The position numbers were made by a program, and so were the translations under genes. From the IMG/VR virus record IMGVR_UViG_3300005294_000012: a stretch of 64,000 nt of DNA, one strand, 5' to 3'. This document shows positions 3,822-64,000 of the stretch, piece after piece; positions within the stretch are counted from its first letter, which is position 1; every line of letters starts with the position of its first letter. Below the pieces are notes generated by a model, which was not told the origin of the DNA, made no database searches, and worked only from the letters and a program-made list of their open reading frames with translations. Origin of the DNA: an uncultured virus (IMG/VR IMGVR_UViG_3300005294_000012). Taxonomy: Duplodnaviria > Heunggongvirae > Uroviricota > Caudoviricetes.

Positions 3822-4159
3822 TGGCTGGCCGCGTACTGCGTAACTCGCGCGGCCAGTTCGCAGGATCAACAGGTGGATGGGGTCGTGGCCGGGTCGGTCG
3901 CGGCGGCGGATTTGGCAACGGTCGCAAGGGTAAGGTCCGCTCGCTCAGCGGCTTTCAGCGGCAGCAGCGGATCACCCGGACCATCAGGCGCGGCGGGTCT
4001 GTCGGAGTGGCTGTCGGGGCCTCCCTGGCCGGCGCGGCTCTGGCGCACAAGGGCGCGTCTCACGGGAACGTCAGAGTCAGCCTTGCCGGACTCGGTCTTA
4101 CTGTCGTGGGGCAGGCAGCAACCGTGCATGCCAAGAGGACCATCGGGCGTCGCAGGTAG
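3821..4159 (+). CDS. Arg/Gly-rich protein with RNSRGQF motif and hydrophobic C-terminal segments
   Basis: Coupled ORF ending 3 nt before TerL. Confidence 0.6.
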   Translation: MAGRVLRNSRGQFAGSTGGWGRGRVGRGGGFGNGRKGKVRSLSGFQRQQRITRTIRRGGSVGVAVGASLAGAALAHKGASHGNVRVSLAGLGLTVVGQAATVHAKRTIGRRR

Positions 4160-4162
4160 GCC

Positions 4163-9890: not shown

Positions 9891-10256
9891 ATGACTGCTC
9901 GGGTCGACAAGACCGAATCAGCGGTCGGGGTTACCCGTGGCACCCTCAACGCCGACATTGCCCAGGCTGACTGGGGCAAGGTCATCGGTGTCAGCATCAA
10001 CGGCACCGGCAAGGTCGTACGAGGGGGCGCGGCTGGCCTCATTATCGGCGTGATCATCGCCGACAAGACCAACTACAAGGCGGGTCAGCGCTGCGACATC
10101 ATCGGCAACGGTTCAGAGATCATCGAAGACACAGGTCTCACCGCCGGCGCCCAGTACTACGCAGATGCGACGACCGGTCTCCTCACCCTCACCACTACTT
10201 CTAACACCCGCGTCGGCTACACCGTCGAGGCGGACCGTCTGGTGGTGACGCTCTGA
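9891..10256 (+). CDS. Capsid decoration/cement protein
   Basis: 121 aa beta-rich (GLTAGAQYYAD..TG.L), between scaffold and capsid. Confidence 0.7.
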   Translation: MTARVDKTESAVGVTRGTLNADIAQADWGKVIGVSINGTGKVVRGGAAGLIIGVIIADKTNYKAGQRCDIIGNGSEIIEDTGLTAGAQYYADATTGLLTLTTTSNTRVGYTVEADRLVVTL

Positions 10257-15174: not shown

Positions 15175-18100
15175 GTGGGCCAGGTCAACCTGGGCACCGC
15201 GAGCGGCCGGATCGTCATCGACGGTAGCGGCGCCAAGTCTGGCTTTGACGTTGCCACATCCGCCGCGAACGCCTTTTTCAACGTCGTCGCCGACCGGGTC
15301 CACGAGATCGATCGGATCGGCACTCAGCTCACCAAGATCGGCGCGGTAGCCGCCGGCGGCTTCGGTCTGGCCATCAACACAGCTGCCAATTTCGAGCAGC
15401 GGCTGTCCGCCATCCAGGCCGTCTCAGGGGCCACCAGCGACCAGATGGCGCAGGTGTCCAAGACCGCCCTACGACTGGGCGCAGACACCAAGTTCTCGGC
15501 CGGTGAGGCTGCCAACGCCATCGAGGAGCTGGTCAAGGCCGGCATCTCGGTGCAGGACGCCCTGAACGGCGCAGCTGACGCCACCACGGCCTTAGCAGCC
15601 GCCGGCGAGATCGACCTGCCACGGGCAGCCGAGATCTCGGCGAACGCAATGAACGTGTTCAACCTGGCAGCTGCCGACATGCCGCACGTGGCCGACCTGA
15701 TCGCCGGCGCAGCGAACGCCAGCGCGATCGACGTCGAGCAGTTCGCCCAGTCCCTACAGGCCAGCGGTGCTGCGGCGAACCTGGCTGGCTTCAAATTCGA
15801 TGATCTTTCCCAGGCCATCGCGCTGATGGGCAACGCCGGCATCAAGGGCTCCGACGCCGGCACCTCGCTCAAGACGATGCTGCTGAACCTCAACCCTGTC
15901 ACGGACAAGCAGAAGGGGTTGATGGAGGACCTTGGTCTGATCACCAAGGAGGCGGGCAACCGGTTCTTCGACGCCGAGGGCAACGTCAAATCCTTCGCCG
16001 ACGTGGCGCAGGTGCTGCAGGACTCCCTGAAGGGCCAGACCAAGCAGCAGAAGCTGGCCACCCTGGAGACCTTGTTCGGCTCCGACGCGATCCGGGCCGC
16101 AGCTGTCGTCTCCGAGGCCGGCGCCCAGGGCTTCAACGACATGGCCACGGCCATGGGCAAGGTCACCGCAGCTGGGGTGGCAGCGACCCGAATGGACAAC
16201 CTGCGCGGCTCGCTCGAGCAGCTCAAGGGCTCGCTGGAGACCGCAGGAATCATCATCGGCACCGTCTTTCTGCCGGCACTGAAGCGAATCGTCGACTTCA
16301 TAACCCGCGTGGTCAACGTCTTCAACAACGCCCCCGAGGGGGTTCAGAAGTTCCTGACCGTAGTGGTGGCGCTAGGGGGTGGTCTGTCGCTGCTGACCGG
16401 CATTGCGATCAAGCTCCTGTTCGTCCTGATCCCGCTACTGGCCAAATTTCTGGGGTTCGCTGCTCTCAAAAGCATCTTCTCGATTTTCACTGCTGGCTTT
16501 GGTGCTCTCCGTGGCGGAGCCGGCATCCTCGGGGCGCTCAGCGTCGCCGGCGGGCGCGCGGCAGTCGTCTTCACCCGGATCGGCAAGGTCGGCAAGTTCC
16601 TCTTCGGCAGCCTCACCAAGATCCTGGGCGTACTCCGCTTCCTACGTGTGGCTATCCCGTTCGCCTTCGGCCCGTGGGGAGCGTTGATCGCCGGGATCAT
16701 CTCCCTACTGGTGATCTTGTTCAAGAAATTCCAGCCCTTCCACGACCTGGTGCTCCGGGTGGGCGATGCCATCAAGACCGGATTCGGCAAGGCGGTGCAG
16801 TTCGTCCAGGACGCCATCGCCCAGATCGTGGCCGGATTCCAGGGGCTCGAGGGCAGCGGGCCGGCGGCGGTGTTCGCCGAGCTCGGGGCTGGCGCGCGGA
16901 TCCTGTGGGAAGCCCTGAAGGAGCTAGCGGCTGTCTTCCAGGCGCAAGTAATGCCTGTTTTGCGGGAAGCCGGCGGACAAATTCTCTCGGCACTAGGGGG
17001 TGCCTTCAAGGAAATCTCCGGTTCCGTGCAAGACGCGGCACCGGCCTTCCGCCAGCTGGTCTCAACGCTCAAGCCTTTAGTGGCAGCCCTTGCCCCGGTA
17101 GTGGCCGCAATTCTGAAATTCCAGCTGGCCATCGTCAAGGTGGCAGTGATCCTGGTCGGGGTCCTGCTGTTCGCCTTGATCAAGATCGCCACCTTCGTCG
17201 CCGGCAAGCTGCTGCCCCCGTTCATCCGGTTCGCCACCTGGCTGGTAACCGGGCTTATCGGCGTACTCGGACCGGTGGTCGGTTTCTTCGTCCAGGTCGC
17301 TGCGGCCATCGCATCCTTCGTCGCCGGCGTGGTCGGATTCTTCACCGGGGCAGAGGCGGCAGCTGGCAGCGGAGCAGCCAAAATCCAGGGCGTCCTATCC
17401 GGGATAGCTGCTTTCTTCGTCGGCATCTGGAACGCGGTCAAGGCCGTCGTTATCGGGGCCTGGACGGCCATCTGGACCTTCATCACCACGGCGATCAACA
17501 CCGTAAAGACGATCATCACCACCGGACTGAACTTCATAAAGGGGCTATGGACCGCTTTCTGGGGTAGCCAGCTCGGACAGCTGGTGCTCAACGCCCTCGG
17601 GCTGATCGGCGACATCATCAAGCTGGCCCTGGCAGCCATCAAATTCGTCTTCCTAGCCTGGATCGCTGGAGTAAAGGCCAGCTGGAACATTTTCTGGACC
17701 GGGCTGACTGCCATCGTGAGCGCCGTCTGGAACGGCATCAAGGCCGTAGTGCTGGCCGGTATCGCCGTCGTAAAGGCAGCCTTCATCGCCGGGTGGAACG
17801 CGGTTCGGGCGGCGACAGCTGCCGTGCTGGCGCCCATCGTCGCCTTTGTGGCCGGCAGAATCCGGGCAATCCGGGCTGTGGTGTTGGCCGTTTGGAATGC
17901 GATCAAGGCCGCTACTGCTGCCGCCTGGGCGGTGATCCGGGCCAGAATCGTCACCCCGATCGCTGCCGCAGCTGCTGCCGTGTACGCGCGGACCGCCGGC
18001 ATCCGTGCCCGGGTATCGGCGGCGTGGAACGCAGTCAAGTCAGCCACCGTCGCCGCCTGGAACCGGGTGGTCTCAGCGATTAAGACAGCGGTGGACAAGG

Positions 18101-18600
18101 CAGTTGCCGTGGCTCGAGGGATCAAGGACCGGATCGTCGGATTCTTCTCCGGGGCAGCGAGCTGGCTCTACAACGCCGGCAAAGACATCATCCAAGGCTT
18201 GATCAACGGAATCGACTCCATGATCGATTCGGCTCGAGCCAAGCTGCAGCACCTGACCAGCCTGATTCCGAAGAGCAAGGGCCCGCCGGCCAAGGACAAG
18301 GTGCTGCTGTACGACAACGGCAAGCTGATCATGGAAGGTCTGATCCGGGGTATCACCGACCAGTTCTCACCGTTCCAGGACACCCTGAAAGGCCTGACGA
18401 CATCCATCCCGGTGACGGCGATGTCCTCGGTAACGAGCAACGGAATTCCTAAGGTTGTCGTGCCACCGCCCAAGGCGCCGCAGTTCCCGAGCAAGTTGAC
18501 GCTGTCGGTCGGTGGCCGCGAGTTCGACGCCTACGTGGTCGAGAAGGCTGACGGGGTGCTCGGGACTGCTGCCGCCAAGATCGGCAGGGGGAGGAAGTAA
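15175..18600 (+). CDS. Tape measure protein
   Basis: 1141 aa; TP901-type core (TKFSAGEAA, GIKGSDAGTSLK), hydrophobic segments, periodic Trp repeats. Confidence 0.95.
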   Translation: MGQVNLGTASGRIVIDGSGAKSGFDVATSAANAFFNVVADRVHEIDRIGTQLTKIGAVAAGGFGLAINTAANFEQRLSAIQAVSGATSDQMAQVSKTALRLGADTKFSAGEAANAIEELVKAGISVQDALNGAADATTALAAAGEIDLPRAAEISANAMNVFNLAAADMPHVADLIAGAANASAIDVEQFAQSLQASGAAANLAGFKFDDLSQAIALMGNAGIKGSDAGTSLKTMLLNLNPVTDKQKGLMEDLGLITKEAGNRFFDAEGNVKSFADVAQVLQDSLKGQTKQQKLATLETLFGSDAIRAAAVVSEAGAQGFNDMATAMGKVTAAGVAATRMDNLRGSLEQLKGSLETAGIIIGTVFLPALKRIVDFITRVVNVFNNAPEGVQKFLTVVVALGGGLSLLTGIAIKLLFVLIPLLAKFLGFAALKSIFSIFTAGFGALRGGAGILGALSVAGGRAAVVFTRIGKVGKFLFGSLTKILGVLRFLRVAIPFAFGPWGALIAGIISLLVILFKKFQPFHDLVLRVGDAIKTGFGKAVQFVQDAIAQIVAGFQGLEGSGPAAVFAELGAGARILWEALKELAAVFQAQVMPVLREAGGQILSALGGAFKEISGSVQDAAPAFRQLVSTLKPLVAALAPVVAAILKFQLAIVKVAVILVGVLLFALIKIATFVAGKLLPPFIRFATWLVTGLIGVLGPVVGFFVQVAAAIASFVAGVVGFFTGAEAAAGSGAAKIQGVLSGIAAFFVGIWNAVKAVVIGAWTAIWTFITTAINTVKTIITTGLNFIKGLWTAFWGSQLGQLVLNALGLIGDIIKLALAAIKFVFLAWIAGVKASWNIFWTGLTAIVSAVWNGIKAVVLAGIAVVKAAFIAGWNAVRAATAAVLAPIVAFVAGRIRAIRAVVLAVWNAIKAATAAAWAVIRARIVTPIAAAAAAVYARTAGIRARVSAAWNAVKSATVAAWNRVVSAIKTAVDKAVAVARGIKDRIVGFFSGAASWLYNAGKDIIQGLINGIDSMIDSARAKLQHLTSLIPKSKGPPAKDKVLLYDNGKLIMEGLIRGITDQFSPFQDTLKGLTTSIPVTAMSSVTSNGIPKVVVPPPKAPQFPSKLTLSVGGREFDAYVVEKADGVLGTAAAKIGRGRK

Positions 18601-20579: not shown

Positions 20580-21742
20580 TGTTCCAGGTCCCTTGGTATG
20601 TGATCAACTCGCTGAACAGTGTGACCAAGCGTCGCATTGTCGTCGAGTGGTCCAACGACCGCTTCAAGACGGTCGGAGGNACCGTCGATGCCTATGACGC
20701 GAACTTCACCTGTGANCTGAACGCCCAGGTCCGCTGGGCAGCNACCTGCTCNGTGATCAACATCGACTCCAGGATCAACGACAAGACCACCTGGATGCGN
20801 CCCTACCTGGAGATCAAGGGCATGCGGTCCAACTGGTGGCGGATCCCGATGGGCGTCTATCGGGTCTACTCGATCAAGATCAGCGACATCTTCGCCGACC
20901 TCACCCTGGACGGTCTGGAGGCCATCGTCCGGGACCACACCTTCCACGTGCCGCGCACGCTGCCGCTGAGCAAGTCCGACAGCCGGCGGACCACGCTGAC
21001 CAAGCTGCTCCGAGAGTCGATCCCGTTCGTTCCGGTGGTCTGGAACCTGAAAGACTCCACCTCCGCGATGGCCAAGGTGACGATCGAGCGCGATCGCTGG
21101 GGGCTCATCGACGGCGACGGCGACGCCAAGTCGATCACCAACAGCCTGGCAGCCGATTGCTTCTGTGATCGGATCGGGCAGTTCGTGGTGTCACCGACGC
21201 CGATCGATACCGCCAAACCGGTGTGGGAGATCACGGTCGACGCCGGCGTCAAGGTGAGCTCGGCGACCACGTTGTCCCGGGAGAACATGAAGAACGTCTG
21301 GACGGTGTGGGCCGAGCCGGGAGGCACCAAGAAGAACGTCGGCCCGGTGCACGTCTGGGACAACGATCCCGGCAGTGACACGTACGCCGGCACAAATCCG
21401 ATCAAGAACTTCGCGCGGGATTCAAAGGCGTTCGGAATCGTCCCGGGCTACTACCAGAACCCACTGCTGAAGACCACCAAGGCCTGCGAGCAGGTGGGCC
21501 GGAAGCGTCTCGCGGTGTCGCTGGCCGAGCGCCGCACAGTAGAGATCACCTCGATCTTCAACCCGACCCTGGACGCCGGCGACTGCATCGCCCTGGTGCC
21601 CGACGGATCGACCAGGAAAAGCGGCTTCATCATCGAACAGGTGGCCTATTCGATCGAGGACGCCTCGACGTCGATGACGATGCGCACCCAGGGTCCGCCG
21701 GCCTTCGCCGAGTCGGCCGATGACGAGGGGGCCATCGAATGA
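20579..21742 (+). CDS. Minor tail (hub/Tal-like) protein
   Basis: IPMGVYRV, NPTLDAGD motifs; synteny. Confidence 0.75.
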   Translation: MFQVPWYVINSLNSVTKRRIVVEWSNDRFKTVGXTVDAYDANFTCXLNAQVRWAXTCXVINIDSRINDKTTWMXPYLEIKGMRSNWWRIPMGVYRVYSIKISDIFADLTLDGLEAIVRDHTFHVPRTLPLSKSDSRRTTLTKLLRESIPFVPVVWNLKDSTSAMAKVTIERDRWGLIDGDGDAKSITNSLAADCFCDRIGQFVVSPTPIDTAKPVWEITVDAGVKVSSATTLSRENMKNVWTVWAEPGGTKKNVGPVHVWDNDPGSDTYAGTNPIKNFARDSKAFGIVPGYYQNPLLKTTKACEQVGRKRLAVSLAERRTVEITSIFNPTLDAGDCIALVPDGSTRKSGFIIEQVAYSIEDASTSMTMRTQGPPAFAESADDEGAIE

Positions 21743-26595: not shown

Positions 26596-27200
26596 TGAGC
26601 ACGACGGACGACGTCTTGATCAAGAAAGCTGGGAAGTCTTCCGGCGAAGTGATCAACAACATTCTTTCCTACTGGGAGGCAGCGACCGAGCGCAACCGCG
26701 AGGACGGCGCCCAGTGGTACCTGATCAATCAGCAGGCCATCGATGAGATGGCCCACGGGAGCGGGGTGAGCCTGGACACAGCTGCGGCTGTGGTGGCTCA
26801 CCTATCACCCCGAATTCACTGGTCACGAAACATCATCGCGGCTCACAGTGTGCTGAACGGGCTGCCGGTGACCGGGATCATGACCAGAAGTCTGGCCGGC
26901 GCCCGGGCCGCGATTGCGGCCTATCAGATGGGTGAGGACCCGCTGAAGACACTCAAGGGCCCGAAGATTCGCAACTTCGCGGCCAACCTGATCGGTGACT
27001 CTGACGCGGTCACGATCGACATCTGGGCGGGACGCGTGGCGCTGGANTCAACGGCGGACCTGGAATTGATCATGGCCCGCGCCGGGGTCTACNNCGCGCT
27101 GGCNCAGTGCTACCGCGAGGCTGCCGCCCGCGTCGATGTCACNCCATCAACCATGCAGGCCACTTGCTGGATCGTGGCGCGAAACGGAAGGGCCGATTGA
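26596..27200 (+). CDS. Conserved phage protein with helical, possibly DNA-glycosylase-like fold
   Basis: G..WY, A.LSP...W..N, GPK..NF..N, VTIDIWA, MQA..W motifs; GGAGG RBS. Confidence 0.6.
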
Positions 27201-42510: not shown

Positions 42511-45500
42511 ATGCAATTCGTCTCGCTTCACACACATTCCACGTTCAGCTACGGCGATGGGCTCGGCATGCCGGCCGAGCACGTGGCCCGGGTTGCCGAG
42601 CTTGGGATGAAGGCTCTGGCGCTCACCGATCACGGGAACGTCTCCGGCCACGTGAAGCTGGACCAGGCAGCCAAGGCTGCCGGCATCAAGCCGATCTTCG
42701 GGCTGGAGGCCTACACCGGTCCGAAAGAGATGCGGGAGATCAAGCAGCGCGCCAAGTGGCACCAGACGATCCTCGCGGCCGACCAGACGGGCTACCACAA
42801 CCTGATGGAGCTGGTCTCACGGTCGTACTCGGAGGGCTTCTACCACGACCCCACGATCCATTGGGACATGCTGGTGGATCACAACGCGGGACTGATCGTC
42901 ACCTCGGGGTGCGCAGACTCGCTGCTGAGCAGCACGCTACTCGGAGGTCAGAAGGCGATTGAGGTCGGGTCCGAACGGGCCGCTATCGGGATCCTCAAGG
43001 CCTACCAGCGACTCTTCGGTGACAGGTTCTATCTCGAAGTACAGGCGTTCCCCACCCTTGAACGCACGCGCCTGATTAACGCCGCTTTTCAGGAGTGGTC
43101 GGTCAGGTTCGGTGTCGGGCTGGTCGCGACCAGAGACGTTCATCATCCTCTTCCAGAGCAGACAGAACTACGCAAGATCCTGCACGCCGCCAACCGGGGT
43201 ATCGCCTCGGTCGACGTCGCCGCTGCGCAGTGGGAATACGACGTCCCCTGCACCTATCCAGCTACCGATCATGATCTTTTCGATGCACTCCGGGCCACAG
43301 GGCTCTCCACCATCGGCGCGATGCAGGCGATAAAGAATTCGGCCGAAATCGCTGATCGGTGCAATGTCGAGCTGCCCTCCATGGCCCGCGTGCAGTATCC
43401 ATTCGCCCAGGACGGTGCTGAGTCCCCGGACGACCTCATACGACAGTGGCTCAGTGAGGGCTGGGTCCTGCGGGGATTCGATCGTCTTGACCCAGTCCAG
43501 CGCCGCGCGGCACGCCAGCGCGTCCAACGCGAGCTGGATGTTTTCGAGCAGAAGGACTTCATCCACTACTTTCTGATGATCGCTGACGCTGTCCGTTTTG
43601 CGAAGTCGGAGGGGATCGCCGTCGGCCCAGGGCGGGGCAGTGCCGCAGCGAGCCTGTGCATGTACCTGCTGCAGGTAACCGAGATCAACCCTCTCGAATT
43701 TCCATTGATGATGTTCGAGCGCTTCGTCGACCCCGACCGCATGGACCTCCCAGACGTCGACATCGACTTCGACCCCGGCCGGCGGGATGAGGTTCGCCAG
43801 TACCTGGTCCGCAAGTATGGGGAGAACCGCGTCGGGAACGTGGGAACGTACACGTACTACCGGGGGAAGAATTCCGTCAACGATGTCGCCAGGGTTCACA
43901 ACGTGCCTTTCGTGGTGGCTCAGAAGGTGAAGGACATGACCCCCGATGAGGGGTTCAAGGTTGCTCACGCAGTCTTCCCCGTCGTCCAGGACCTCGTCAA
44001 GGAATACCCGCAGCTGGAGTGGGCCCTGCAGCTCGAGGGCAACATCAAAGGCTTCGGCATTCATGCCGCCGGCCTGGTGGTGGGTGCTGAGCCGCTGTCG
44101 AACTACGTCGCCACCTACACCCGCGTCACCGGGACCGGGCTGGCCAAGAAGCGCGTCTCGGTGTTGAGCGTGGACAAGTACGACGGCGAGACGATGGGGC
44201 TGCTGAAGATCGACGCGCTAGGGCTCACAACCATGGGGGAAATTCAGACCATGGCTGGGATCGCGGGCATGAGCCTTGAAGAGGTCTACCGCATTCCCCT
44301 GGATGAGGATGCCGTCCTCCAAGGCTTTCGTGATGGCCGCACCAACGGCATCTTCCAGTTCGCCGGATCGACAACACGAGACATCTGCGTCGAGGTGGCG
44401 CCTCGGGAATTCATGGACTTGGCCCATATCAACGCATTATCGCGGCCGGGTCCGCTGCACGGCGGTAGCACCGCGCAGTTCATCAAGGCCCGACAGGGCC
44501 ACGTACGCGGTGTGATGCATCCGCTGATCGAGGAGGTGCTGGCCACCACCGAGGGCGAGCTGATCTACCAGGAGCAGGTGATCAAGCTGGCACAGGTGGT
44601 CGGCGGGTTCGACGTCGCCGGCGCCGCCAGGGTGCGTTCGATCATGTCAAAGAAAAAGGGGCAGGCAGCATTCGCAGACCTCTGGAAGGACTTCGCCGAG
44701 GGGGCACTCAAGAACGGTGTGCCAGCAGAGGAAGCAAAACGTGTCTGGCGAAACATGATCACCTCCGGTGGCTACGCCTTCAACGTCGCGCACGCCGTCA
44801 GCTACTCGGTCCTCGCCTACTGGACCATGTGGTTCCGCGTTCATCACCCTCTGGCTTTCTTCTACGCTCGGCTGCTGCACGCCGCCGACAAGGAGGCGGA
44901 GGCGACACTGGACATCCTCAAAGACATGACCGCCACAGCCCCGGACATCAAGGTGATGCCGCTGGATCCGTGGTTCTCCGGTGCCAACTGGACCATCGAC
45001 GAGGGCGCTCTGCGTCCCGGTTTCCGGCAGGTCAAGGGCATCGGTGCCTCCGTGGCGAATCTGTTGGTGCTGTTCCGGGACGGCTGGGCGGCTAAGCCAT
45101 GGATCTCCTGGGACGACTACCTGCAGGTCGGTAGCATCGGCCCGAAAACGATCAAGACCCTAACCGATTTCGCCGAGTCCGATGACCCGTTCGGTGTCAA
45201 GAAGTTGTTCCGGCAATCGGCGGAGATCGCCGAATGGGCGCACCAGAAGGGCCGGCCGAAGGTCACCAAGACCTCCGACATGATCCCCTACCGGGAAGGC
45301 AAGTGGTCCGGGGTGCTGCTCGGAGTGGTGATCGAGGTGCAGCTGCGTGACCTGTTCGAGACCCATCGCAACCGGACCGGTGAGGTGTTGTCACGAGACG
45401 ACGTCGACCAGCCCGAGCTCGCGACGTCGGCGTACCTGTACTGCGAGGATGTGCGCGGCAAATACAAGATCAGGATCAACCGCTTCACCTACCCGCGCTA

Positions 45501-45618
45501 TCGCCGGGAGATCGAGGCGATCGACCCCGGCAAGGACTGGGTGCTGGCGGCTGTGTCGAAGAGCAACTTCCCAGGAAAAACGACCAAGGTGGATGCGATG
45601 TGGGTGATCTCGCTATGA
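42511..45618 (+). CDS. dnaE: DNA polymerase III alpha subunit
   Basis: PHP motifs HTHS/TDHG, GPGRGSAA, PDVDIDF, HAAG, KIDALGL, YAFNVAHA. Confidence 0.95.
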   Translation: MQFVSLHTHSTFSYGDGLGMPAEHVARVAELGMKALALTDHGNVSGHVKLDQAAKAAGIKPIFGLEAYTGPKEMREIKQRAKWHQTILAADQTGYHNLMELVSRSYSEGFYHDPTIHWDMLVDHNAGLIVTSGCADSLLSSTLLGGQKAIEVGSERAAIGILKAYQRLFGDRFYLEVQAFPTLERTRLINAAFQEWSVRFGVGLVATRDVHHPLPEQTELRKILHAANRGIASVDVAAAQWEYDVPCTYPATDHDLFDALRATGLSTIGAMQAIKNSAEIADRCNVELPSMARVQYPFAQDGAESPDDLIRQWLSEGWVLRGFDRLDPVQRRAARQRVQRELDVFEQKDFIHYFLMIADAVRFAKSEGIAVGPGRGSAAASLCMYLLQVTEINPLEFPLMMFERFVDPDRMDLPDVDIDFDPGRRDEVRQYLVRKYGENRVGNVGTYTYYRGKNSVNDVARVHNVPFVVAQKVKDMTPDEGFKVAHAVFPVVQDLVKEYPQLEWALQLEGNIKGFGIHAAGLVVGAEPLSNYVATYTRVTGTGLAKKRVSVLSVDKYDGETMGLLKIDALGLTTMGEIQTMAGIAGMSLEEVYRIPLDEDAVLQGFRDGRTNGIFQFAGSTTRDICVEVAPREFMDLAHINALSRPGPLHGGSTAQFIKARQGHVRGVMHPLIEEVLATTEGELIYQEQVIKLAQVVGGFDVAGAARVRSIMSKKKGQAAFADLWKDFAEGALKNGVPAEEAKRVWRNMITSGGYAFNVAHAVSYSVLAYWTMWFRVHHPLAFFYARLLHAADKEAEATLDILKDMTATAPDIKVMPLDPWFSGANWTIDEGALRPGFRQVKGIGASVANLLVLFRDGWAAKPWISWDDYLQVGSIGPKTIKTLTDFAESDDPFGVKKLFRQSAEIAEWAHQKGRPKVTKTSDMIPYREGKWSGVLLGVVIEVQLRDLFETHRNRTGEVLSRDDVDQPELATSAYLYCEDVRGKYKIRINRFTYPRYRREIEAIDPGKDWVLAAVSKSNFPGKTTKVDAMWVISL

Positions 45619-52169: not shown

Positions 52170-52667
52170 ATGATGTTCTGGCGCAAGTGGTGGGGCAGCG
52201 CCTACCGGAGGCGACTCCGCGAGCTCGAGCAACTCGCCGCGCAGAAGGCCGAAGGCGCGATGGGCCGGCACGTGCTGGTCAGTACGCGGAGCGGCAAGAA
52301 GGCGATGACCGAGGCTATGGTCGCCAAGGCGCAGGCCGAGGGCAAACAGGTCTTGATCTGGGATCCGAAAGGTGACCTCGAGGACTGGCCGGCGTACCTC
52401 CGTGAAGGGATCAGGATCGGCCAGTGGCCACGGTCGGGCAAGTCCCAGGTGATCGTCTCCGGTGGAGGCGGGATGGGCGGTTCGTACGACCAGCGCGCGC
52501 TACAGATCATGACCGACGAGCTCGAGGGGCTGGCTGCGCAGCTGAACCTCTGGGCCGATGGCAACAACAAGACGACCACGCAGCGGGCCATCGCCACCGA
52601 GCAGCGCAACATCGCCCGCCAGCTGCGACAGATCGCCAAGGGAGGCAAGGCCGAGGATGGACGCTAG
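52170..52667 (+). CDS. Hypothetical protein
   Basis: Coupled ORF. Confidence 0.6.
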   Translation: MMFWRKWWGSAYRRRLRELEQLAAQKAEGAMGRHVLVSTRSGKKAMTEAMVAKAQAEGKQVLIWDPKGDLEDWPAYLREGIRIGQWPRSGKSQVIVSGGGGMGGSYDQRALQIMTDELEGLAAQLNLWADGNNKTTTQRAIATEQRNIARQLRQIAKGGKAEDGR

Positions 52668-53286
52668 GTTCTCCCCGCAGCCCTGGACGCGGCCGGCCAC
52701 GCCGAAGACCCAGCGCAAGCACGGCAACTTCCGAACCAGCTACACCCGGACCCTGGAGAAGCTGCAGTACGAGCTGGAGAAGATCGGCGCCACCGAGATT
52801 CTGTTCGAGTGTTCGTTCCACGCCAACCAGATCCGGCTCGACGGCTGGCCCAAGGCCAACCAGTCCCCGGAGTACAACGGGATCGCGGTCAGCTTCAACC
52901 ATCCTGAAGTTGGCCGGGTCGAGTACGTCACCGACCGGTACTTCTTGTGGCAGGACAACCTGCACGCCATCGCCTTGACGCTGGAAGCGCTGCGCGGCGT
53001 CGAACGCTGGGGTGTGGTCGCATCCGGCCAGCAATACACCGGGTTCAAGGCCATCGAATCGGGCAACGGATCGCGTCGGCCGGCAGCTGTGTGGATCGCC
53101 AAGCTGGTCGAACCCGACGACGCCGAGCGGCAGAAGGTCGTGGTCGACGGACTGCTGACCAAGTCCAGCCACATGACCAAGGTGGTGGTCCGACAGGCCA
53201 AGATCCGGGCCCATCCAGACACCGGCGGCAGCCACGACATGTACCAGCTGCTCACCGAACGACTAGAGACATTGGGGTTGTCATGA
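52657..53286 (+). CDS. Phage protein with C-terminal J-domain-like HPD motif
   Basis: DRY..WQDNLHAIALTLEALRGVERWG family motif; AHPDTGGS. Confidence 0.8.
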   Translation: MDARFSPQPWTRPATPKTQRKHGNFRTSYTRTLEKLQYELEKIGATEILFECSFHANQIRLDGWPKANQSPEYNGIAVSFNHPEVGRVEYVTDRYFLWQDNLHAIALTLEALRGVERWGVVASGQQYTGFKAIESGNGSRRPAAVWIAKLVEPDDAERQKVVVDGLLTKSSHMTKVVVRQAKIRAHPDTGGSHDMYQLLTERLETLGLS

Positions 53287-53798
53287 GTGATTTGCAACCG
53301 TGGGGACGACCAGGCGGCGACAAGGGCCGGGTCAACTACGACACCATCAACGGCGGGCCCGAGATCGAATCGATCAACGGCGCCACCAAGAAGGGCGACA
53401 GCGGCTTCCACGATCCCTACCAGAAGCCGCCGGCAGGATTCGAGGACTGGCACCAGGTCGGGCAGTCCAACATGGACACGATCAACGAGGCCGCAGAACG
53501 GCAGAAGGCCCTGGAAGGCGCCGGGTTCAAGTACGACTCGAGCAACGGCACCTGGGTGGGACCGTCGGGCCGTACGACCACGCTGTTCGGCAACGATCCC
53601 GGCCCTGAGGGCGGCGTGGACTACCACTGGGATCGGCAGGGCGCAGGCAGCGAGCGAGGCCAGATCGAAGGCCAGTACGGCGACGATCCGCGCCGGCAGG
53701 GCGACGACGACAAGGGCACCGAGATGCCTTCCGGGCTGAGCAGCTTTCTTGAGAAGTGGACCATCTGGGGGCGGATCCTGAAGCACTTCGGGCGGTGA
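53283..53798 (+). CDS. Gly/Asp-rich hypothetical protein
   Basis: ATGA-coupled low-complexity ORF. Confidence 0.6.
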   Translation: MSDLQPWGRPGGDKGRVNYDTINGGPEIESINGATKKGDSGFHDPYQKPPAGFEDWHQVGQSNMDTINEAAERQKALEGAGFKYDSSNGTWVGPSGRTTTLFGNDPGPEGGVDYHWDRQGAGSERGQIEGQYGDDPRRQGDDDKGTEMPSGLSSFLEKWTIWGRILKHFGR

Positions 53799-53801
53799 GT
53801 C

Positions 53802-54299
53802 ATGGGTTGGGGCGACGATCAGGACGACCAGACCTGGGATGACGTCGCGTCCGACCGCAACCAGGAGCCGACCGACCGCTATCGCCGCGACCCGAACCAG
53901 CCCTACCGCTCCATCTGGGACGACCCCGATGATGATGAGGAGGAGAACCCGGCCGAAGGCTACAAGTACCGCAACAACGGTCTGGTCCAGAACAAGGGCA
54001 ACAGCATCTGGGGCGCGCCGGCGCCCGGTACCCGGTGGGGCGACGGTCCGAACAACGTCGACCTGGACGATCATGGTGATCCGGTCGGACCGCGCGGCGG
54101 AGTCAGCTACGGCGGCTTCGGGTTCCACCGGGGGCAGACCGGGCACGGGGTCAAGACCAAGTACGACGACGTGCTGGCCAAGTACCAGACCATCCGCCAT
54201 CCCGGCGGGGCGATGCGCAGGAAGATCAAGGCCGAACTGGAGCGCCGGATGCCGAAGGCCGAAGCGAGGAAGATCATGAAGGACCACAACTGGCTATGA
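53802..54299 (+). CDS. Asp/Gly-rich hypothetical protein with basic C-terminus
   Basis: Starts 3 nt after the preceding stop. Confidence 0.6.
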   Translation: MGWGDDQDDQTWDDVASDRNQEPTDRYRRDPNQPYRSIWDDPDDDEEENPAEGYKYRNNGLVQNKGNSIWGAPAPGTRWGDGPNNVDLDDHGDPVGPRGGVSYGGFGFHRGQTGHGVKTKYDDVLAKYQTIRHPGGAMRRKIKAELERRMPKAEARKIMKDHNWL

Positions 54300-54447
54300 C
54301 CTGGATGGAAATGCTGCACCAGCTGGCCGAGCGGAGCGCGACCGGATCGTTCGTCGCGTTGATGCTGCTCGGCCTGGTGCTCGGCGTTCCCGTGGTGACC
54401 TTCTTTGTGTGGCTGAACTCCCTTTTCGACGGGAGTAGGTCCTAATT

Positions 54448-55848
54448 ATGGCCAGGCGTCCCGGCATGATCCGATACGGCAGTTTCGCCGAGGTGACCAA
54501 CGGTGTCATCGGTTTCGTGCCGTGGGTCAAAGACAAGGTGCGGCGCTATATCTGGGGCATTGTCTGGCCCGGGATATTCGCAATTACGATGACGTGCCTG
54601 CTGGCTTATGGCCAGCACAAAATGGCCGAGATATTCGCCTCCGCCTCGATCGCCTTGGTCACGATCAAGCTGTTCATGGTCGCCTCGCAGCTGATATTGA
54701 TGGGTTTCACGGCGGCGTTGCTGTGGGGAATGCACCACACCTCGCAGGCGGTGATGCCCACATTCAGTGTGGAGATTCCGCGTTTCGAGCCGCGTCCACC
54801 GCCGAACCTGGAGGCCGGCGAGACCTGGGAAGAGTGGCTCCGCAAGGGCGTACGCATCGGCCGTTGGCAGGGTGAGGTCGGGTCGCTCGAGCCCGGTGAC
54901 ATCTGCTGGATGCCGATCGTGGACGTCCACCCGTTCATCGCGGCCGAGTCCCGGATGGGCAAGTCGACGCTGCTCTGGGCGATCCTGTGGGAGCTGAAGC
55001 CGGCCATCGAGGCGGGCGTGGTCGAGATCATCTTGTTCGACCCGAAGAACGGCATGGAGATGGCGCCGGCAGTGGCGCTGGGTCTGGTCAAGTCCATGGA
55101 GCGGATGGGCCGTCCCGAGGGCATGGTGGACGAGGTCGATAACTTCTTCTACGGCCAAGACGTCGGGCACCCGGACCCGAACAATCCCGAGCGCTGGATC
55201 GGCAAGAAGTACGAGGAGACGTTCGTCCCGCCGCTGGAGCACCACGTGCAGCTGATGCGGGAACGCGCTTCTGAGGTGCGCGGTTCGATGCAGTGGATTC
55301 CGGCCAGCCGGAAGCATCCGCGCCGCATCGTGATCGTGGACGAGGGCGCCTCGCTGGCCCGCCCGTCGGCCAACCTGAACACCCGGCAGCGGATCATCTC
55401 CGCGATGCTGAACCTCTGCGACCAGGGCGCAGGCGCCGGCTACACGATCATCACCGCGACCCAGCATCCCGACGTCAAGAAGGTGCCGTGGCGCCACGGT
55501 CTGATCGGTGCCGGCCTGTGTGGCCGGGTCAAGACCTGGGACGCGGTCGACATGGTGCTGGGCCGGGGCAGCTACGCGCGCGGCGCCTGGGGCGATCAGC
55601 TGAGCTCCAAGGTCAAGGGCGTGTTCTTCATGTCCGGTCACGGCGCCTGGCAGCTGCGGGTGCAGAACGCCAAGCCGAAGTTCACCCGGAAGCCTCCGGA
55701 CCGTGGCGGCGGTAAGGAGATCGAGGAGTTCAACCCGAGTTCGGAGCCGACCAACGCGCAGCTGGCGCAGGTGGTGCCGCTCCGTAACCGCAACATCTGG
55801 CCGGTCCGGGAGAACGTCGGCGGGGACCGCGAAGTAGGGGCCGCATGA
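54448..55848 (+). CDS. Membrane FtsK/SpoIIIE (TraB-like) ATPase
   Basis: N-terminal TM segments; ESRMGKS, FDPKNGME, IVIVDE, ATQHP motifs. Confidence 0.85.
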   Translation: MARRPGMIRYGSFAEVTNGVIGFVPWVKDKVRRYIWGIVWPGIFAITMTCLLAYGQHKMAEIFASASIALVTIKLFMVASQLILMGFTAALLWGMHHTSQAVMPTFSVEIPRFEPRPPPNLEAGETWEEWLRKGVRIGRWQGEVGSLEPGDICWMPIVDVHPFIAAESRMGKSTLLWAILWELKPAIEAGVVEIILFDPKNGMEMAPAVALGLVKSMERMGRPEGMVDEVDNFFYGQDVGHPDPNNPERWIGKKYEETFVPPLEHHVQLMRERASEVRGSMQWIPASRKHPRRIVIVDEGASLARPSANLNTRQRIISAMLNLCDQGAGAGYTIITATQHPDVKKVPWRHGLIGAGLCGRVKTWDAVDMVLGRGSYARGAWGDQLSSKVKGVFFMSGHGAWQLRVQNAKPKFTRKPPDRGGGKEIEEFNPSSEPTNAQLAQVVPLRNRNIWPVRENVGGDREVGAA

Positions 55849-55849
55849 G

Positions 55850-56386
55850 ATGGTTACCCGACTTCAGATCGTTGACGACCCGGGTGAGGACGACCGCGAC
55901 GAGGAGGCTGCCGGCGTCCCGCAGCGGGAACGCGCGGCCAACATAATGGGCACCGAGCGCCGCCAGCTGATCATCGAGCTGGCCCGGGGTACCCGGCGGA
56001 TCGTTGATCTTGCCTTCGAGCACGAACGCCCGCCGCAGGTCATCTCGAATTTCAAATACCGGAATAAGCAGGAGATCCTGCAGATGCGACGGGTGCTGGA
56101 TTCCAAAACAGCTGATCTACATTTCGCAATTCAGCTGCACCGAATCGCCGATGCCGAGCGCCATCTGGCCTTTCTCGATGATCAGATCCGCAGAATGCAG
56201 GAGGGATTCCTGGACGGCGAGGAGGTCGACACCAAGGAATTGCGAGGTCTTATCGCCGACGCGTCGAAACTTCGTAAGGAGATCCGCGAGGAATTGAAGC
56301 CGACCATGTCCCTGGGCGATATTCAGGTGACCCCGTCGAAGAAATACGGAGGCCAAAACTGGTTTGGTGAGGAGGGCGAGACATGA
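55850..56386 (+). CDS. Terminase small subunit-like HTH protein
   Basis: HTH-like N-terminus plus helical hairpin; ATGA overlap with the TerL-like gene. Confidence 0.55.
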   Translation: MVTRLQIVDDPGEDDRDEEAAGVPQRERAANIMGTERRQLIIELARGTRRIVDLAFEHERPPQVISNFKYRNKQEILQMRRVLDSKTADLHFAIQLHRIADAERHLAFLDDQIRRMQEGFLDGEEVDTKELRGLIADASKLRKEIREELKPTMSLGDIQVTPSKKYGGQNWFGEEGET

Positions 56387-57678
56387 GTATGCCTGTTCTC
56401 CTCGACGACTACGTGGCGATCGGTTCCAACTGGGAGGCGTGCACAGCTACCGAGCAGGAGGTGATCGTCACCGGTCAATCGGGCAGCGGGAAGACCCGCG
56501 CGCTGCTGGAAAAGGTCCATCGGGCTTGCAAGGAGTTCACCAACATCAAGGTGTTGCTGCTGCGCAAGCGCAGTGCTGATCTGGCCGGCAGCGCTCTGGA
56601 GTTGTTCCGTGATCATGTCGCTGGGCCGGCGCTGCACACCGGTGAGGTGAGGTTCTTCGACGCTTCCCGCTCGGAGCCGGCGCGCTATGAGTACCGCAAC
56701 AGCGGGTCGATGATCGTGCTGGGTGGGCTGTGGCCTCCGACGCAGGCGACCAAGGTCACCAACTCGGAGTGGGACATCGTCTGTGTGATCGCGGCGAACG
56801 AGCTGACCGAGCACGACTGGGAGCTACTGATCCCGCTATGCCGCAACGGGTCGCTGCCGATCAACCAGCTGATCGGAGAATGCCAGCCACAAGGCGATGA
56901 TCACTGGATCCTGCAGCGCGCCAAGCGCGGCCAGCTGCGACTCATCGAGGGCGTCATCGAGGACAACCCGCGCTGGTTCCGCAACGGCGAGATAACCAGG
57001 GAGGGACGGGCCTTCATCGCCAAGCTGGACGCTCTCACCGGGGTCACCAAGCTGCGCAACCGGTACGGCTACTGGGTGGCCGCACAAGGCCAGTGCTGGC
57101 CCAGCTACAACGACAAGGTCCACCTGATCGAGCCGTTCCCGTTCCCGTTCCACTGGCCCACCTGGTGGAGCATCGACTTCGGGAAGGTGCACCCGTTCGC
57201 GTTCGGGCTGTTCACCATGGACCCCAACGGCCGAGCGTTCCTAGTGAAGCAGATCCACATGTCCGGCCGGGAGACCGAGGAGCACTGCCGCGACATCCTG
57301 CGGATCACCCAGCCGTACGCCTCGCCGACCGACATCATCACCGATCACGCGGCCAACGACGTGGCGATCTGTGAGCGGATGTTCGGCCGCAAGGTGGTCT
57401 TGGCCAACAAGTCCGTACTCGAGGGCATCGACTACGTGGAGAAGCGGTGGGCGCAGCGCAAGCTGTTCATCTTCGATGACTCCCTGGTCGAGATCGATGA
57501 GACGTTGCGGTCGCGTGGCCGGCCGATCGACCTGCAGTCGGAGATCCCGGGGTACGTGTGGCAGTCGGGCAAGCGTTCCAAGGAGGGCCCGGTGAAGGCC
57601 TGGGACGATAGTTGTGACATGACGCGTTACTTCATCGCCGAGCAGGACGCGCCCGAGCAGTGGGAGGTGAGCTGGTGA
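56383..57678 (+). CDS. Second terminase large subunit (PBSX-like)
   Basis: GQSGSGKT, EDNP, SIDFG..HP, ITDH, PVKAWDDSCDMTRY. Confidence 0.85.
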   Translation: MSMPVLLDDYVAIGSNWEACTATEQEVIVTGQSGSGKTRALLEKVHRACKEFTNIKVLLLRKRSADLAGSALELFRDHVAGPALHTGEVRFFDASRSEPARYEYRNSGSMIVLGGLWPPTQATKVTNSEWDIVCVIAANELTEHDWELLIPLCRNGSLPINQLIGECQPQGDDHWILQRAKRGQLRLIEGVIEDNPRWFRNGEITREGRAFIAKLDALTGVTKLRNRYGYWVAAQGQCWPSYNDKVHLIEPFPFPFHWPTWWSIDFGKVHPFAFGLFTMDPNGRAFLVKQIHMSGRETEEHCRDILRITQPYASPTDIITDHAANDVAICERMFGRKVVLANKSVLEGIDYVEKRWAQRKLFIFDDSLVEIDETLRSRGRPIDLQSEIPGYVWQSGKRSKEGPVKAWDDSCDMTRYFIAEQDAPEQWEVSW

Positions 57679-58053
57679 GCGCTCTAGGCGAGTACGCCGT
57701 CAAGACGGTCGCGGCAGGCATGGCCTTGATCAAGATGCTGGGGTTTCTCAAGACCGAGGACGAGAGCCTGGTACTGACCCGCGCCGAGGTGGAGGCGATC
57801 ATCATGACGATCCGCGAACAGGCGACAGAACTCAAACTTCGCAATATCAGGGGGCGGCAGCGGTGATCCCGATGATGATGGTCGACTGGAACCGGCCGAT
57901 GTGGGTGATCTTCATGATCTGCATGACCGTGATCATCTGTGTGACGATCAGCAATCTGCACCGGTGGTTCAAGTGAAAGACGGCTGGAGCCTGGTCCGCT
58001 TCTGCATGGTCTTGGTGATCATTGCAGTGGTTGCAAACGAGTTGCTGAAGTGA
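57675..58053 (+). other. Two or three very small genes, including hydrophobic peptides
   Basis: Chain of overlapping short ORFs between TerL2 and the PH-domain gene. Confidence 0.45.
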
Positions 58054-58685
58054 TTAGCGTTGCAGCTGTCGGCCGGCCGTTCCGGTACGCCGGGATGTTC
58101 TCCGCCGCCGGCGCCAGCTGGATCTCTCGGAAGCTGGATCCCAAGGTGGACCGGGAGATCATGACTGAGATCGGTGAGCGGAAGGTGCTGGAGATTCGCA
58201 AGCACTGGTTCGCCTCGAACTGGGCGATGATCCGGATCTTGTTCAGTGCGATCGTGCTGGGCTGGTTGACGGCGCTGACGCCCGAGCACTGGTATGAGTG
58301 GGTCGGTTTCTTCTGGGTGGTCTGGGTGATCATCTTCATCGCCACCCGCGCGGTGTGGCGGGTGCTGGAGCACTACCGGGACCGGTTCGTGATCACCAAC
58401 CAGCGGATCCTGCGCTGTGATGGGGTAGTCGGCACCGATACCGCGATGATTCCGTTGAAGCGGATCACTGACATCACCGTCAAGCAGTCGGTGTGGGGGA
58501 AGCTGTTCAACTACGGCCACATGATCTTCGAGTCCGCCGGCCAGGTGCAGGGGCTGAACGAGATCCGCTACGTGGCCAACCCGCGCAAGCGCAAGCGCAT
58601 CCTGCTGATCGCCATGAACGGCGACAATCCCGAGGCCCTGGTCCTCGACCCGTCCGAGGGGAACCCCAATGACGATGGCACCTGA
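58050..58685 (+). CDS. Membrane protein with bacterial PH domain
   Basis: IRKHW, two TM segments, FVITNQRI..G, IPLKRITD, GKLFNYG...ESAG. Confidence 0.85.
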   Translation: MISVAAVGRPFRYAGMFSAAGASWISRKLDPKVDREIMTEIGERKVLEIRKHWFASNWAMIRILFSAIVLGWLTALTPEHWYEWVGFFWVVWVIIFIATRAVWRVLEHYRDRFVITNQRILRCDGVVGTDTAMIPLKRITDITVKQSVWGKLFNYGHMIFESAGQVQGLNEIRYVANPRKRKRILLIAMNGDNPEALVLDPSEGNPNDDGT

Positions 58686-58807
58686 GCAGATCCTGTTCTC
58701 GATCGGACTGCTGCTCTGGCTGTTCGCCTGGATCGCCATCTTGCTCGAACTGCTGTACCACCTGGTGCGCTTCGAGATCTACCTGTGCAGGAAGCTCCGC
58801 CGGATGA

Positions 58808-59065
58808 TCAAAGCAAGACGGTCGGATCCCATCCCTCAGTGATCTGGTAGACCCGCCGGCGGGGGCGTCCTGGCTCGAGATCGGGCTCGTGCTCCCAGGT
58901 GCTGGAGAGGCAGTGCTCGCGCTCGAGCCTGGCCAGAATCGGATAGACCACCCCGCTCGCTACGCCGGCGCGTACGGCGACCTCGTAGCCATAGATGCTT
59001 TCCTCCTCGTCGCGGAGTTGGATGATCGCTCGGACCACGGCTTTGACGGCCATCGTTTTCTTCAT
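58808..59065 (-). CDS. PadR-family transcription regulator
   Basis: YGYEV...GVVYPILARLE...W...GRPRRRVYQITEG. Confidence 0.85.
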   Translation of the reverse strand: MKKTMAVKAVVRAIIQLRDEEESIYGYEVAVRAGVASGVVYPILARLEREHCLSSTWEHEPDLEPGRPRRRVYQITEGWDPTVLL

Positions 59066-59084
59066 AATCCGTATGCTACATGTG

Positions 59085-59113
59085 TTGACTACGACCCGCA
59101 ACTAGTTCATAAT
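59085..59113 (+). promoter_or_regulatory. Sigma70-type promoter, probably leaderless, divergent from PadR
   Basis: TTGACT-17 nt-CATAAT; ATG 59120 follows after 6 nt. Confidence 0.7.
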
Positions 59114-63395: not shown

Positions 63396-64000
63396 ATGCC
63401 CACGGTCAAGATGATCAACCCGGTGACCTTTGACGAGATCACCGTTGACGGCGGACAAGCCGATTACTGGGCCAACAAAGGCTGGGTCCAGATCCTCAAC
63501 ACTCCGGACGGGGTCTTCTGGGGTACCCCAGGGGCCAATCCGGTGGTCGCCCGCCCCTTGATCGAAAAGCTGCAGTCCGCCACCGAGTACGCGGCTGTGG
63601 CCGTGTTTGGCGACAACTCGGCGAACGCCAACACCGAGTGGTTCTTCCAGCTGATGCAGTGGCTGACGCTGAAATTCCCGGCCTACTCGGTCACCCATCT
63701 CAGCTGGAACGACACCCTGCAGTTCTGGGACAACCTCAGCCAGGCCGCTGGGATCAACTACCAGATGCAAACCGGTACCGCCGGCGACGCGTACGTCGAT
63801 TTCACCGGCGCCGGCACTCTGACCACCCCCAACGTTGCCGCACTGCAACTCACCGGCAGCCTGGACATCCGGGTCAAGGCCCGCGCCAACGACTGGACGC
63901 CGGCAGCCAACATGGTGCTCACCTCCAAGTACGGTGCCGCCGGCCAGCGCAGCTGGCGCTTCTACCTCTCCACAGCTGGCAATCTGATCCTGGAAGTCAG
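63396..64000 (+). CDS. Partial virion-type protein (SGNH-like start plus LamG-like domain), runs off the window
   Basis: My translation: MPTVKMINP...AVFGDNSAN...LQLTGSLDIRVKARANDWTP...QRSWRFYL, no stop. Confidence 0.65.
   Translation, partial: MPTVKMINPVTFDEITVDGGQADYWANKGWVQILNTPDGVFWGTPGANPVVARPLIEKLQSATEYAAVAVFGDNSANANTEWFFQLMQWLTLKFPAYSVTHLSWNDTLQFWDNLSQAAGINYQMQTGTAGDAYVDFTGAGTLTTPNVAALQLTGSLDIRVKARANDWTPAANMVLTSKYGAAGQRSWRFYLSTAGNLILEV

Follow-up and report, generated by a model that had tools for sequence, protein, structure and literature searches.

A second terminase gene coupled to a gene for a membrane-anchored FtsK-like ATPase in the genome of an uncultured soil actinophage

The window analyzed here is a stretch of 64,000 nucleotides (64 kb) from the uncultured virus IMG/VR IMGVR_UViG_3300005294_000012. 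It reads as a single siphophage genome on one contig, with about 62% GC and nearly every gene on the + strand, and the phage is an uncultured soil actinophage. In addition to the canonical terminase large subunit (TerL1), which is encoded beside the portal gene, the window contains a second terminase large subunit gene (TerL2). TerL2 lies in an operon with genes for a terminase small subunit-like (TerS-like) protein, an FtsK-like ATPase and a membrane protein with a bacterial pleckstrin homology (bPH) domain. An earlier note, written from the sequence, had pointed out this arrangement and suggested a repurposed module. The features of the region are as follows; aa, TM, ORF and GC3 stand for amino acids, transmembrane, open reading frame and GC content at third codon positions, respectively.

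53283..53798, + strand: 171-aa protein of unknown function, which opens the chain; ATGA overlap with the upstream gene ending at 53286
53802..54299, + strand: 165-aa acidic, Gly-rich protein of unknown function; GC3 0.87
54296..54445, + strand: 49-aa single-pass membrane peptide directly 5′ of the FtsK-like gene; hydrophobic stretch 13-45
54448..55848, + strand: membrane-anchored FtsK/SpoIIIE-family P-loop ATPase, 466 aa; phrog_1358, 8.6e-13
55850..56386, + strand: putative TerS-like protein, 178 aa; named from position and predicted architecture
56383..57678, + strand: TerL2, 431 aa, PBSX/Terminase_3 type by tblastn and profile match
57660..58053, + strand: two small ORFs (68 aa; 50 aa with one TM helix), variable filler
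58050..58685, + strand: bPH membrane protein, 211 aa; two TM helices, then the bacterial PH domain
58669..58842, + strand: 57-aa single-TM peptide (TM 6-35), which closes the + strand run
58808..59101, - strand: PadR-family regulator; PadR, 8.2e-9, 35.8 bits (cut-off 27)

From 53283 to 58842, neighboring + strand genes overlap or are separated by just 1-3 nt. Three junctions were read in the sequence. The genes for the 165-aa protein and the 49-aa peptide share an ATGA at 54296, the stop codon of the FtsK-like gene is separated by 1 nt from the ATG of the TerS-like gene at 55850, and the TerS-like and TerL2 genes overlap by an ATGA at 56383-56386. Thus, the tight coupling of the terminase pair to the upstream FtsK-like gene, which the earlier note had described, is present. 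Scans with Pfam and PHROG found no portal or capsid gene within 50-64 kb, as had also been stated, and there is no integrase or transposase gene beside the module.

By tblastn, the entire length (100%) of TerL2 aligns with the Thermobifida phage P1312 terminase at 39% identity (2e-84), and the Streptomyces phage terminases among the matches listed are 32-35% identical to it. Its matches to TerL families of PHROG are weak (2e-10), and it has no Pfam match. A profile of TerL2 matched the D6E TerL structure (5oe8) at 3.3e-33, covering the nuclease half, and the ATPase of Sf6 gp2 at 9e-8. By these matches, TerL2 is a true, full-length homologue of PBSX-type terminases. TerL1 and TerL2 show no BLASTP similarity (best E 0.51), so the second terminase is indeed quite different from the first. 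TerL2 is not the packaging enzyme of this phage: the TerL1 adjoining the portal is a different protein.

We aligned 100 database homologues and 8 locus-derived proteins, and compared the motifs of 95 ordinary homologues with those of 11 TerL2 proteins (7 window-like and 4 L001-like). The Walker A motif of the window TerL2 is kept (GQSGSGKT). The Walker-A lysine is present in 95/95 ordinary homologues and is lost in four of the 11 TerL2 proteins, namely those of the loci L001-L004, which make up the L001-like subclade. The Walker-B positions were numbered in "DhhhhxEAxEL", where position 7 is the acid at the strand end and position 9 is the residue two further on. Every ordinary homologue has an acid at one of these positions (position 7 in 74/95, position 9 in 21/95, neither in 0/95). 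In contrast, 10 of the 11 TerL2 proteins have an acid at neither; the window protein reads "IVCVIAANEL". By hidden Markov model (HMM) alignment, which is the only basis for locating the Sf6 Walker-B residue here, position 7 corresponds to the strand end "VEEA" in the Sf6 gp2 ATPase. For HK97 TerL, PMC9410871 places Walker B at a strand end and reports that neither ATPase activity nor packaging survives the E154A substitution. Among the nuclease aspartates, D265, D321 and D412 do not vary in 51 sequences, and D408 is found in at least 90% of them; all four are retained in all 11 TerL2 proteins. When TerL2 was compared with its counterpart in the Joint Genome Institute (JGI) contig L010, the ratio of nonsynonymous to synonymous substitution rates (dN/dS) was 0.151 for residues 1-225 and 0.094 for residues 226-431. 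TerL2 seems to have lost the ATP motor chemistry and kept the DNA-cutting site. Because the N-terminal half is under purifying selection, this domain still has some role, such as binding of ATP, DNA or a partner, but most likely does not drive translocation. Nucleotide binding may persist, since the window-like subclade keeps Walker A.

An ATPase-dead TerL copy could also act as an immune decoy, which absorbs host terminase sensors (Avs1-3, Upx). PMC13601566 reports that terminase ATPase domains directly trigger Avs2 and Upx and describes a stand-alone terminase-ATPase-like protein, T4 vs.8; in addition, the TerL2 N-domain is under purifying selection despite the lost catalytic acid. However, a decoy would need neither the conserved nuclease aspartates nor a TerS-like partner and a strictly linked membrane ATPase. 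We therefore regard this explanation as very improbable.

The origin of TerL2 was examined with a tree of 106 rows (IQ-TREE quick search), from which P0228 and P0263 were left out as intein-bearing or fragmentary. The window-like proteins (7), the L001-like proteins (4) and the pair P0184/P0185 (2) form one clade (Shimodaira-Hasegawa-like approximate likelihood ratio test, SH-aLRT, 94). The stem of each group has a length of 1.0-1.3 changes per site, and the groups lie within the actinophage PBSX-type terminases, close to those of P1312 and Dagobah. By this tree, TerL2 descends from PBSX-type actinophage terminases. As a separate observation, P0185, which belongs to the TerL2 clade and has intact ATPase motifs, and the FtsK-like protein P0167 are each encoded on an ENA contig of 65,953 bases. 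The equal length is a hint that the contigs are identical; if they are one contig, the link to FtsK predates the loss of the motor. An IMG/VR search with P0185 and P0018 gave just ordinary terminase loci or chance matches.

The FtsK-like protein has two N-terminal hydrophobic helices (approximately 34-53 and 59-95) that are predicted to be TM segments, in line with the membrane anchoring claimed in the earlier note. In the AlphaFold model (predicted local distance difference test, pLDDT, 67.8), the N-terminal helices 23-62 and 66-99 are followed by a cytoplasmic P-loop motor domain. G171-K172-S173 (Walker A) and D298-E299 (Walker B) are invariant in 18 sequences of the family. In a fold search with the model, the best PDB match was TcpA (6o1w, E 5.5e-8), followed by EssC/EccC and the FtsK motor; ranks 1-18 span E 5.5e-8 to 9.4e-6. 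Relatives of the protein pass the Pfam model FtsK_SpoIIIE; the window protein itself has no Pfam match at E<=0.01. A profile search of 1.84 billion representatives yielded 4,727 relatives, 62 of them at E<=1e-30. Those outside a small phage family are actinobacterial "FtsK/SpoIIIE domain-containing proteins" of 470-560 aa, for example from Corynebacterium variabile and Tenggerimyces, and three copies are found on one Fodinicola contig. The best match in a plasmid collection was the Tra protein of Micromonospora plasmid pMR2 (27% identity, 5e-15), which also encodes an integrase, an excisionase, Rep and small hypothetical genes. The fold and the nearest annotated relatives (TcpA and pMR2 Tra) thus point to conjugative double-stranded DNA or coupling ATPases. 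When the family alignment was used against one genome per species (185,579 species), no relative was found with the patterns used, and a genome scan with the distant relative P0041 gave just remote matches in Firmicutes and Planctomycetota. The gene is surrounded by phage genes, with no rep, int, spd or clt context of a conjugative element. Phage FtsK-like proteins are already known as a class (phrog_1358), and matches in BFVD are named "DNA translocase FtsK".

The tail of the FtsK-like protein is disordered after about residue 405, and pLDDT is below 50 for residues 413-466, with one short helix there. The protein ends in Ala-Ala, as its family frequently does (13/15 close members and 45/148 distant representatives, against about 1.5% expected from composition). 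This ending resembles an ssrA-like ...AA degradation tag, and could serve as a proteolytic control signal or a docking peptide. A 165-aa protein encoded at 52170-52667 (+ strand), 1.8 kb upstream of the FtsK-like gene, contains the stretch EDWPAYLREGIRIGQW, which resembles residues 125-140 of the FtsK-like protein (BLASTP E 0.001). It also has a P-loop-like "TRSGKK...WDPKGD" segment with a weak match to the TraD coupling protein (TIGR03743, 6.9e-4). Its gene could be a small paralogue of the FtsK-like gene or a piece of that gene that has been rearranged.

The TerS-like gene lies directly 5′ of TerL2 and is translationally coupled to it by the ATGA overlap, as is the corresponding gene in L001-L004, the product of which is 20-24% identical to the window protein. 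Small terminases usually consist of a disordered N-terminus, short helices, a helical hairpin and short strands; HTH-like helices near the N-terminus bind DNA, a helical core mediates oligomerization, and the strands are C-terminal. In the model of the TerS-like protein (pLDDT 73.2), a disordered N-terminus leads into three short helices (35-46, 51-57 and 62-71), which are followed by a long helical hairpin (residues 73-149) and by two short strands within 153-160. No match was found in Pfam, PHROG or NCBIfam. Foldseek with the model gave nothing at E<=0.001 (the G20c small terminase was at rank 2, E 0.64), and VIA-align gave generic hairpins and nothing more. In the ESM Atlas, a look-alike cluster named "T5 terminase small subunit" appeared at rank 23, which is a lead only. 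The TerS-like protein is also not similar to what is encoded upstream of the P1312 TerL gene. The TerS-like partner of the earlier note is thus assigned by its coupled upstream position and its predicted architecture; neither a family match nor a significant fold match was obtained.

Downstream of TerL2, the hydrophobic peptides that the earlier note had listed are present; however, they are partly variable filler, since 57660-58053 is not conserved in L010 and in a Logan contig of run X3. The segment 57679-57861 has no counterpart in L010, and 57673-58048 is skipped or replaced in the X3 contig. The small ORFs between TerL2 and the bPH gene are replaceable filler outside the conserved module. 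The next gene encodes the expected PH-domain membrane protein: residues 110-175 match bPH_2, the domain of YdbS/YdbT-like membrane proteins (1.3e-11, 45 bits; cut-off 22), TM segments lie within 58-106, and the protein matches phrog_3707. Homologues with 38-48% identity adjoin the module in L001-L004. In four distant relatives, the bPH gene sits upstream of the FtsK-like gene. No relative of the bPH protein from an actinophage was found among isolated phages. The 57-aa peptide that follows is 95% identical in L010.

The recurrence of this gene set was examined in other genomes. All four IMG/VR relatives of the FtsK-like protein have bPH, small TM protein, FtsK-like, TerS-like and TerL2 genes with overlaps, and the linkage is found again in further metagenome contigs. 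In three of the four (L015, L014 and L007), a TerL1 homologue (45-48% identity) lies 1.2-4.7 kb downstream of TerL2; the contig of the fourth ends before the point where this homologue would follow. Two near-complete virus records (CheckV 100% and 94%) contain both terminase types. The FtsK-like gene was found in 0/11 loci with ordinary TerL2 homologues, and a search of IMG/VR with TerL2 as the query found no related loci. The JGI contig L010 matches 53877-57678 at 93% identity and extends to 63962; two other variants are L011 and L012, and Logan contigs from other soil and rhizosphere runs bridge FtsK-TerS-TerL2-bPH. The dN/dS values against L010 are 0.058 for FtsK, 0.152 for TerS-like, 0.126 for TerL2 and 0.036 for bPH, with no stop codons; those against L011 are 0.168 for FtsK, 0.115 for TerS-like and 0.061 for TerL2. 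The module genes are under purifying selection.

These results bear on the null hypothesis of the earlier note, a captured relic. The module might be a relic, a selfish insert or an assembly chimera that does nothing for the phage. Among 50,697 phage records, megablast with the region gave no match, and by tblastn (E<=1e-3) the module is absent save three weak Geobacillus matches. Furthermore, GC is slightly raised at 52-56 kb (0.65 against about 0.62). However, dN/dS across the module is 0.04-0.17, far from the value near 1 that decay would give, and the module recurs in the relatives. Its proteins (33-48% identity) have diverged about as much as the backbone (TerL1 45-48%, capsid 52%), no integrase or transposase adjoins it, and the junctions are spanned by independent contigs. 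Because of the dN/dS values, the recurrence and the independent bridging contigs, a relic or chimera is largely refuted, and we leave it only a very slight probability.

Could the module instead belong to ordinary packaging? The features outside the module that bear on this question are listed below.

4163-5551, + strand: TerL1, canonical; Terminase_6N, 4.1e-9; phrog_2, 5.8e-45
5560-7155, + strand: portal, adjoining TerL1
downstream of the portal: MuF-like head protein, then scaffold
10256-11401: major capsid protein
15175-18600: tape measure protein, among the tail genes
after the tail genes: replication genes (topoisomerase-like protein, WhiB-like regulator, helicase, exonuclease, primase)
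42511-45618: DNA polymerase III (Pol III) alpha subunit

TerL1 and the portal, which were found where the earlier note had placed them, are presumed to be the actual packaging pair. No convincing small terminase gene was found beside TerL1 (3627-4163 of the window): the upstream ORF 3821-4159 encodes a Gly/Arg-rich product, fails the GC3 test (low GC3) and has no family match. It is conceivable that the packaging enzyme is split, with the TerS-like protein as the sole small terminase, TerL2 as the pac-cutting nuclease and TerL1 as the translocating motor. There is likewise no convincing TerS beside TerL1 in L014 and L007, and the module is just 1.2-4.7 kb upstream of TerL1 in the three relatives. 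However, the phage L001 has a 162-aa ORF that overlaps the start of TerL1, and the TerL1 translation, read by eye, shows Walker A, a Glu after the Walker-B strand and terminase-like acidic nuclease motifs. Moreover, Arthrobacter phage Wollypog, whose capsid protein (57%) is the nearest among isolated phages, ahead of those of Microbacterium, Gordonia and Mycobacterium phages, has its left end laid out as in the window, with a large "minor tail protein", small genes and TerL, and the same head-gene layout, but lacks the module. TerS is likewise not annotated in Wollypog. Because this phage has no module, the module is dispensable for virion production. A split enzyme would also leave the FtsK-like ATPase and the membrane proteins unexplained, and we consider it decidedly improbable.

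We infer that the FtsK-like protein, the TerS-like protein and TerL2 act together, because they are strictly linked and translationally coupled. We propose that, in a lineage of uncultured soil actinophages, a terminase nuclease has been exapted to work with an FtsK motor at the membrane, and that the conserved accessory operon encoding them is neither a packaging machine nor a relic. In our judgment, this proposal has about an even chance of being correct. The repurposing suggested in the earlier note is borne out to the extent that TerL2 lacks the Walker-B acid and keeps the nuclease aspartates, and that the ATPase coupled to it belongs with conjugative proteins of the TraB/TcpA type. In the proposed mechanism, the TerS-like protein would bind a DNA site, and TerL2, as a nuclease without its own motor, would make a double-strand end. 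The membrane-anchored FtsK-like ring would then supply ATP-driven translocation, so that the processing and transport of DNA, at or across the cytoplasmic membrane, would need no capsid. The cargo that we prefer would be replicated phage DNA, pushed into a neighboring cell or hyphal compartment like the spreading of plasmids by TraB/Spd. The cargo and the direction of transport are guesses.

Several points weigh against this proposal. A mycelial host is an assumption. P0181, one of the window-like TerL2 proteins, has an Asp at Walker-B position 9, every ATPase motif is intact in the sister group P0184/P0185, and window-like TerL2 proteins, which keep Walker A, may still bind ATP or hydrolyze it residually. 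The TerS assignment rests on gene position and predicted architecture, and a repeat search of 50-64 kb gave just short pairs at chance level, with no candidate recognition array. FtsK gamma and the C-terminal winged helix of TraB are the sequence-recognition domains of FtsK/TraB-type translocases. The FtsK-like model, in which the tail is of low confidence, has no predicted winged-helix domain for DNA recognition at its C-terminus. Furthermore, EssC/EccC rank among the fold matches, and FtsK-family ATPases also move proteins.

A more specific version is a conjugation-like, capsid-independent route for the genome. TerL2 and the TerS-like protein would act as a relaxosome analogue that cuts replicated DNA at a specific site, and a TraB/TcpA-like pump with the bPH and small membrane proteins would push it into the next cell or hyphal compartment. 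Infection would then pass along a filament or cell chain without virions. We consider this route unlikely.

The module could also serve interference or exclusion, as the earlier note had mentioned. A membrane complex would intercept superinfecting genomes, or concatemers of competitors with a related pac/TerS; TerL2 would cut them and the FtsK-like ATPase would feed or expel them. TerL2 comes from another phage lineage (P1312/Streptomyces-phage type) than the resident TerL1, its nuclease is kept and its motor lost, and the module is rich in membrane proteins. In addition, PHROGs assigns both families, FtsK-like and bPH, to its category "moron, auxiliary metabolic gene and host takeover", and the core of the FtsK-like ATPase weakly matches the PADLOC model mad8 (1.8e-9). 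However, no other PADLOC model is above noise: the components match no single defense system, and the TerL2 P-loop gives just noise-level matches to GajB and DRT. The TerS-like protein is unlike the protein upstream of the P1312 TerL, and no result points to a foreign target. This explanation is possible, but in our view unlikely.

The remaining genes of the region are described here. For the first gene of the chain, the low-complexity ORF 53287-53739 was rejected, because the frame 53283-53798 has GC3 of 0.86 (0.86-0.88) and is conserved in L012 (tblastx identity 62%); its product has no Pfam match. The 165-aa protein encoded at 53802..54299 has no family match in Pfam, PHROG or NCBIfam; over the C-terminal 105 aa, its identity is 91% with L010 and 40% with L012, and dN/dS is 0.17 for this protein. 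The 49-aa TM peptide is 90% identical in L010. In L001-L003, a one-TM protein of 105-125 aa with CxxC...CxxC takes its position. These small proteins (L001:5627-6004, L002:5523-5840 and L003:1871-2230) have one N-terminal TM helix and a C-terminal CxDCG...RCDLCxAIxxAELxYYG[FY], which looks like a zinc ribbon. The PadR gene (94% identity in L010) converges with the module, as had been noted, and diverges from the + strand genes that follow. The region's best sigma-70-like site (10/12 matches) is at 59085-59113, between the PadR gene and the gene at 59120; in a promoter and terminator scan of the region, the number of sites was not above that in shuffles. No RNA dataset was found among the listed sequencing runs with related sequence.

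Elsewhere in the window, a very large protein is encoded on either side of the genome "join" upstream of TerL1. The first is the 920-aa protein encoded at 290-3052 (phrog_14065). The other is encoded at 63396-64000 and continues in L010:9070-11421; it has 783 aa in L010 and a weak tail-fiber match. The Wollypog equivalent of the flanking large gene is annotated as a minor tail protein and lies outside the tail operon. Single or double Ns occur eleven times across the window (239, 20680-20800 and 27047-27143), and the module is free of them.

Terminases are regarded as enzymes devoted to capsid packaging, and FtsK/TraB pumps as serving chromosomes and plasmids. The module would clearly illustrate the exaptation of a packaging enzyme for another DNA transaction. 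It makes testable whether phages that infect filamentous or chain-forming actinobacteria can transfer DNA from cell to cell in the absence of particles, and how TraB-type pumps acquire a DNA end. Should the module prove to be an exclusion device, it would represent a weapon of a new class, directed by one phage against another and made from the terminase of a rival. In either case, a sequence-directed nuclease and pump pair would be a possible tool.

Finally, we compared the module with known systems. TerL2 resembles the PBSX/Terminase_3 TerLs of P1312 and of the Streptomyces phages Dagobah and Xkcd426 in full-length homology (33-41%) and in the nuclease motifs; a small gene overlaps its 5′ end, and it nests within this group in the tree. 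In contrast to these enzymes, TerL2 lacks the Walker-B acid, and one subclade also lacks the Walker-A lysine. It is a second copy, away from the portal and beside an unrelated working TerL, and is always linked to FtsK.

The FtsK-like protein resembles the TraB/Tra proteins of Streptomyces plasmids and actinomycete integrative and conjugative elements (AICEs), in that a membrane-associated FtsK/SpoIIIE motor is encoded alongside small membrane proteins. For plasmid pSVH1, PMC4447253 describes a complex, made up of TraB and Spd proteins, that translocates DNA for intramycelial plasmid spreading. The Tra protein of pMR2 is the nearest annotated relative, and the C-terminal Ala-Ala is common to the family. 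Unlike TraB/Tra, the protein is phage-encoded, lacks a rep/int/clt context, has 466 instead of 553 aa and no predicted C-terminal DNA-recognition domain, and its gene is coupled to terminase-derived genes. TcpA of Clostridium perfringens pCW3 is the best structural match (TM-score 0.37/0.48), and it too has N-terminal TM helices before the motor domain. However, the identity is 19%, and TcpA acts in a type-IV-like conjugation apparatus with a relaxase, which is not present here.

T4 vs.8 is likewise a second terminase-derived gene beside a working one, with no function assigned. According to PMC13601566, vs.8 consists of the ATPase domain only, with Walker A and B kept, whereas TerL2 is full length, keeps the nuclease, has lost the ATPase acid and has partners. 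None of the papers listed by full-text literature searches describes a module of a second terminase and an FtsK-like protein. The individual parts, namely phage FtsK-like proteins and extra terminase genes such as T4 vs.8, are known; their combination in one operon appears to be new.

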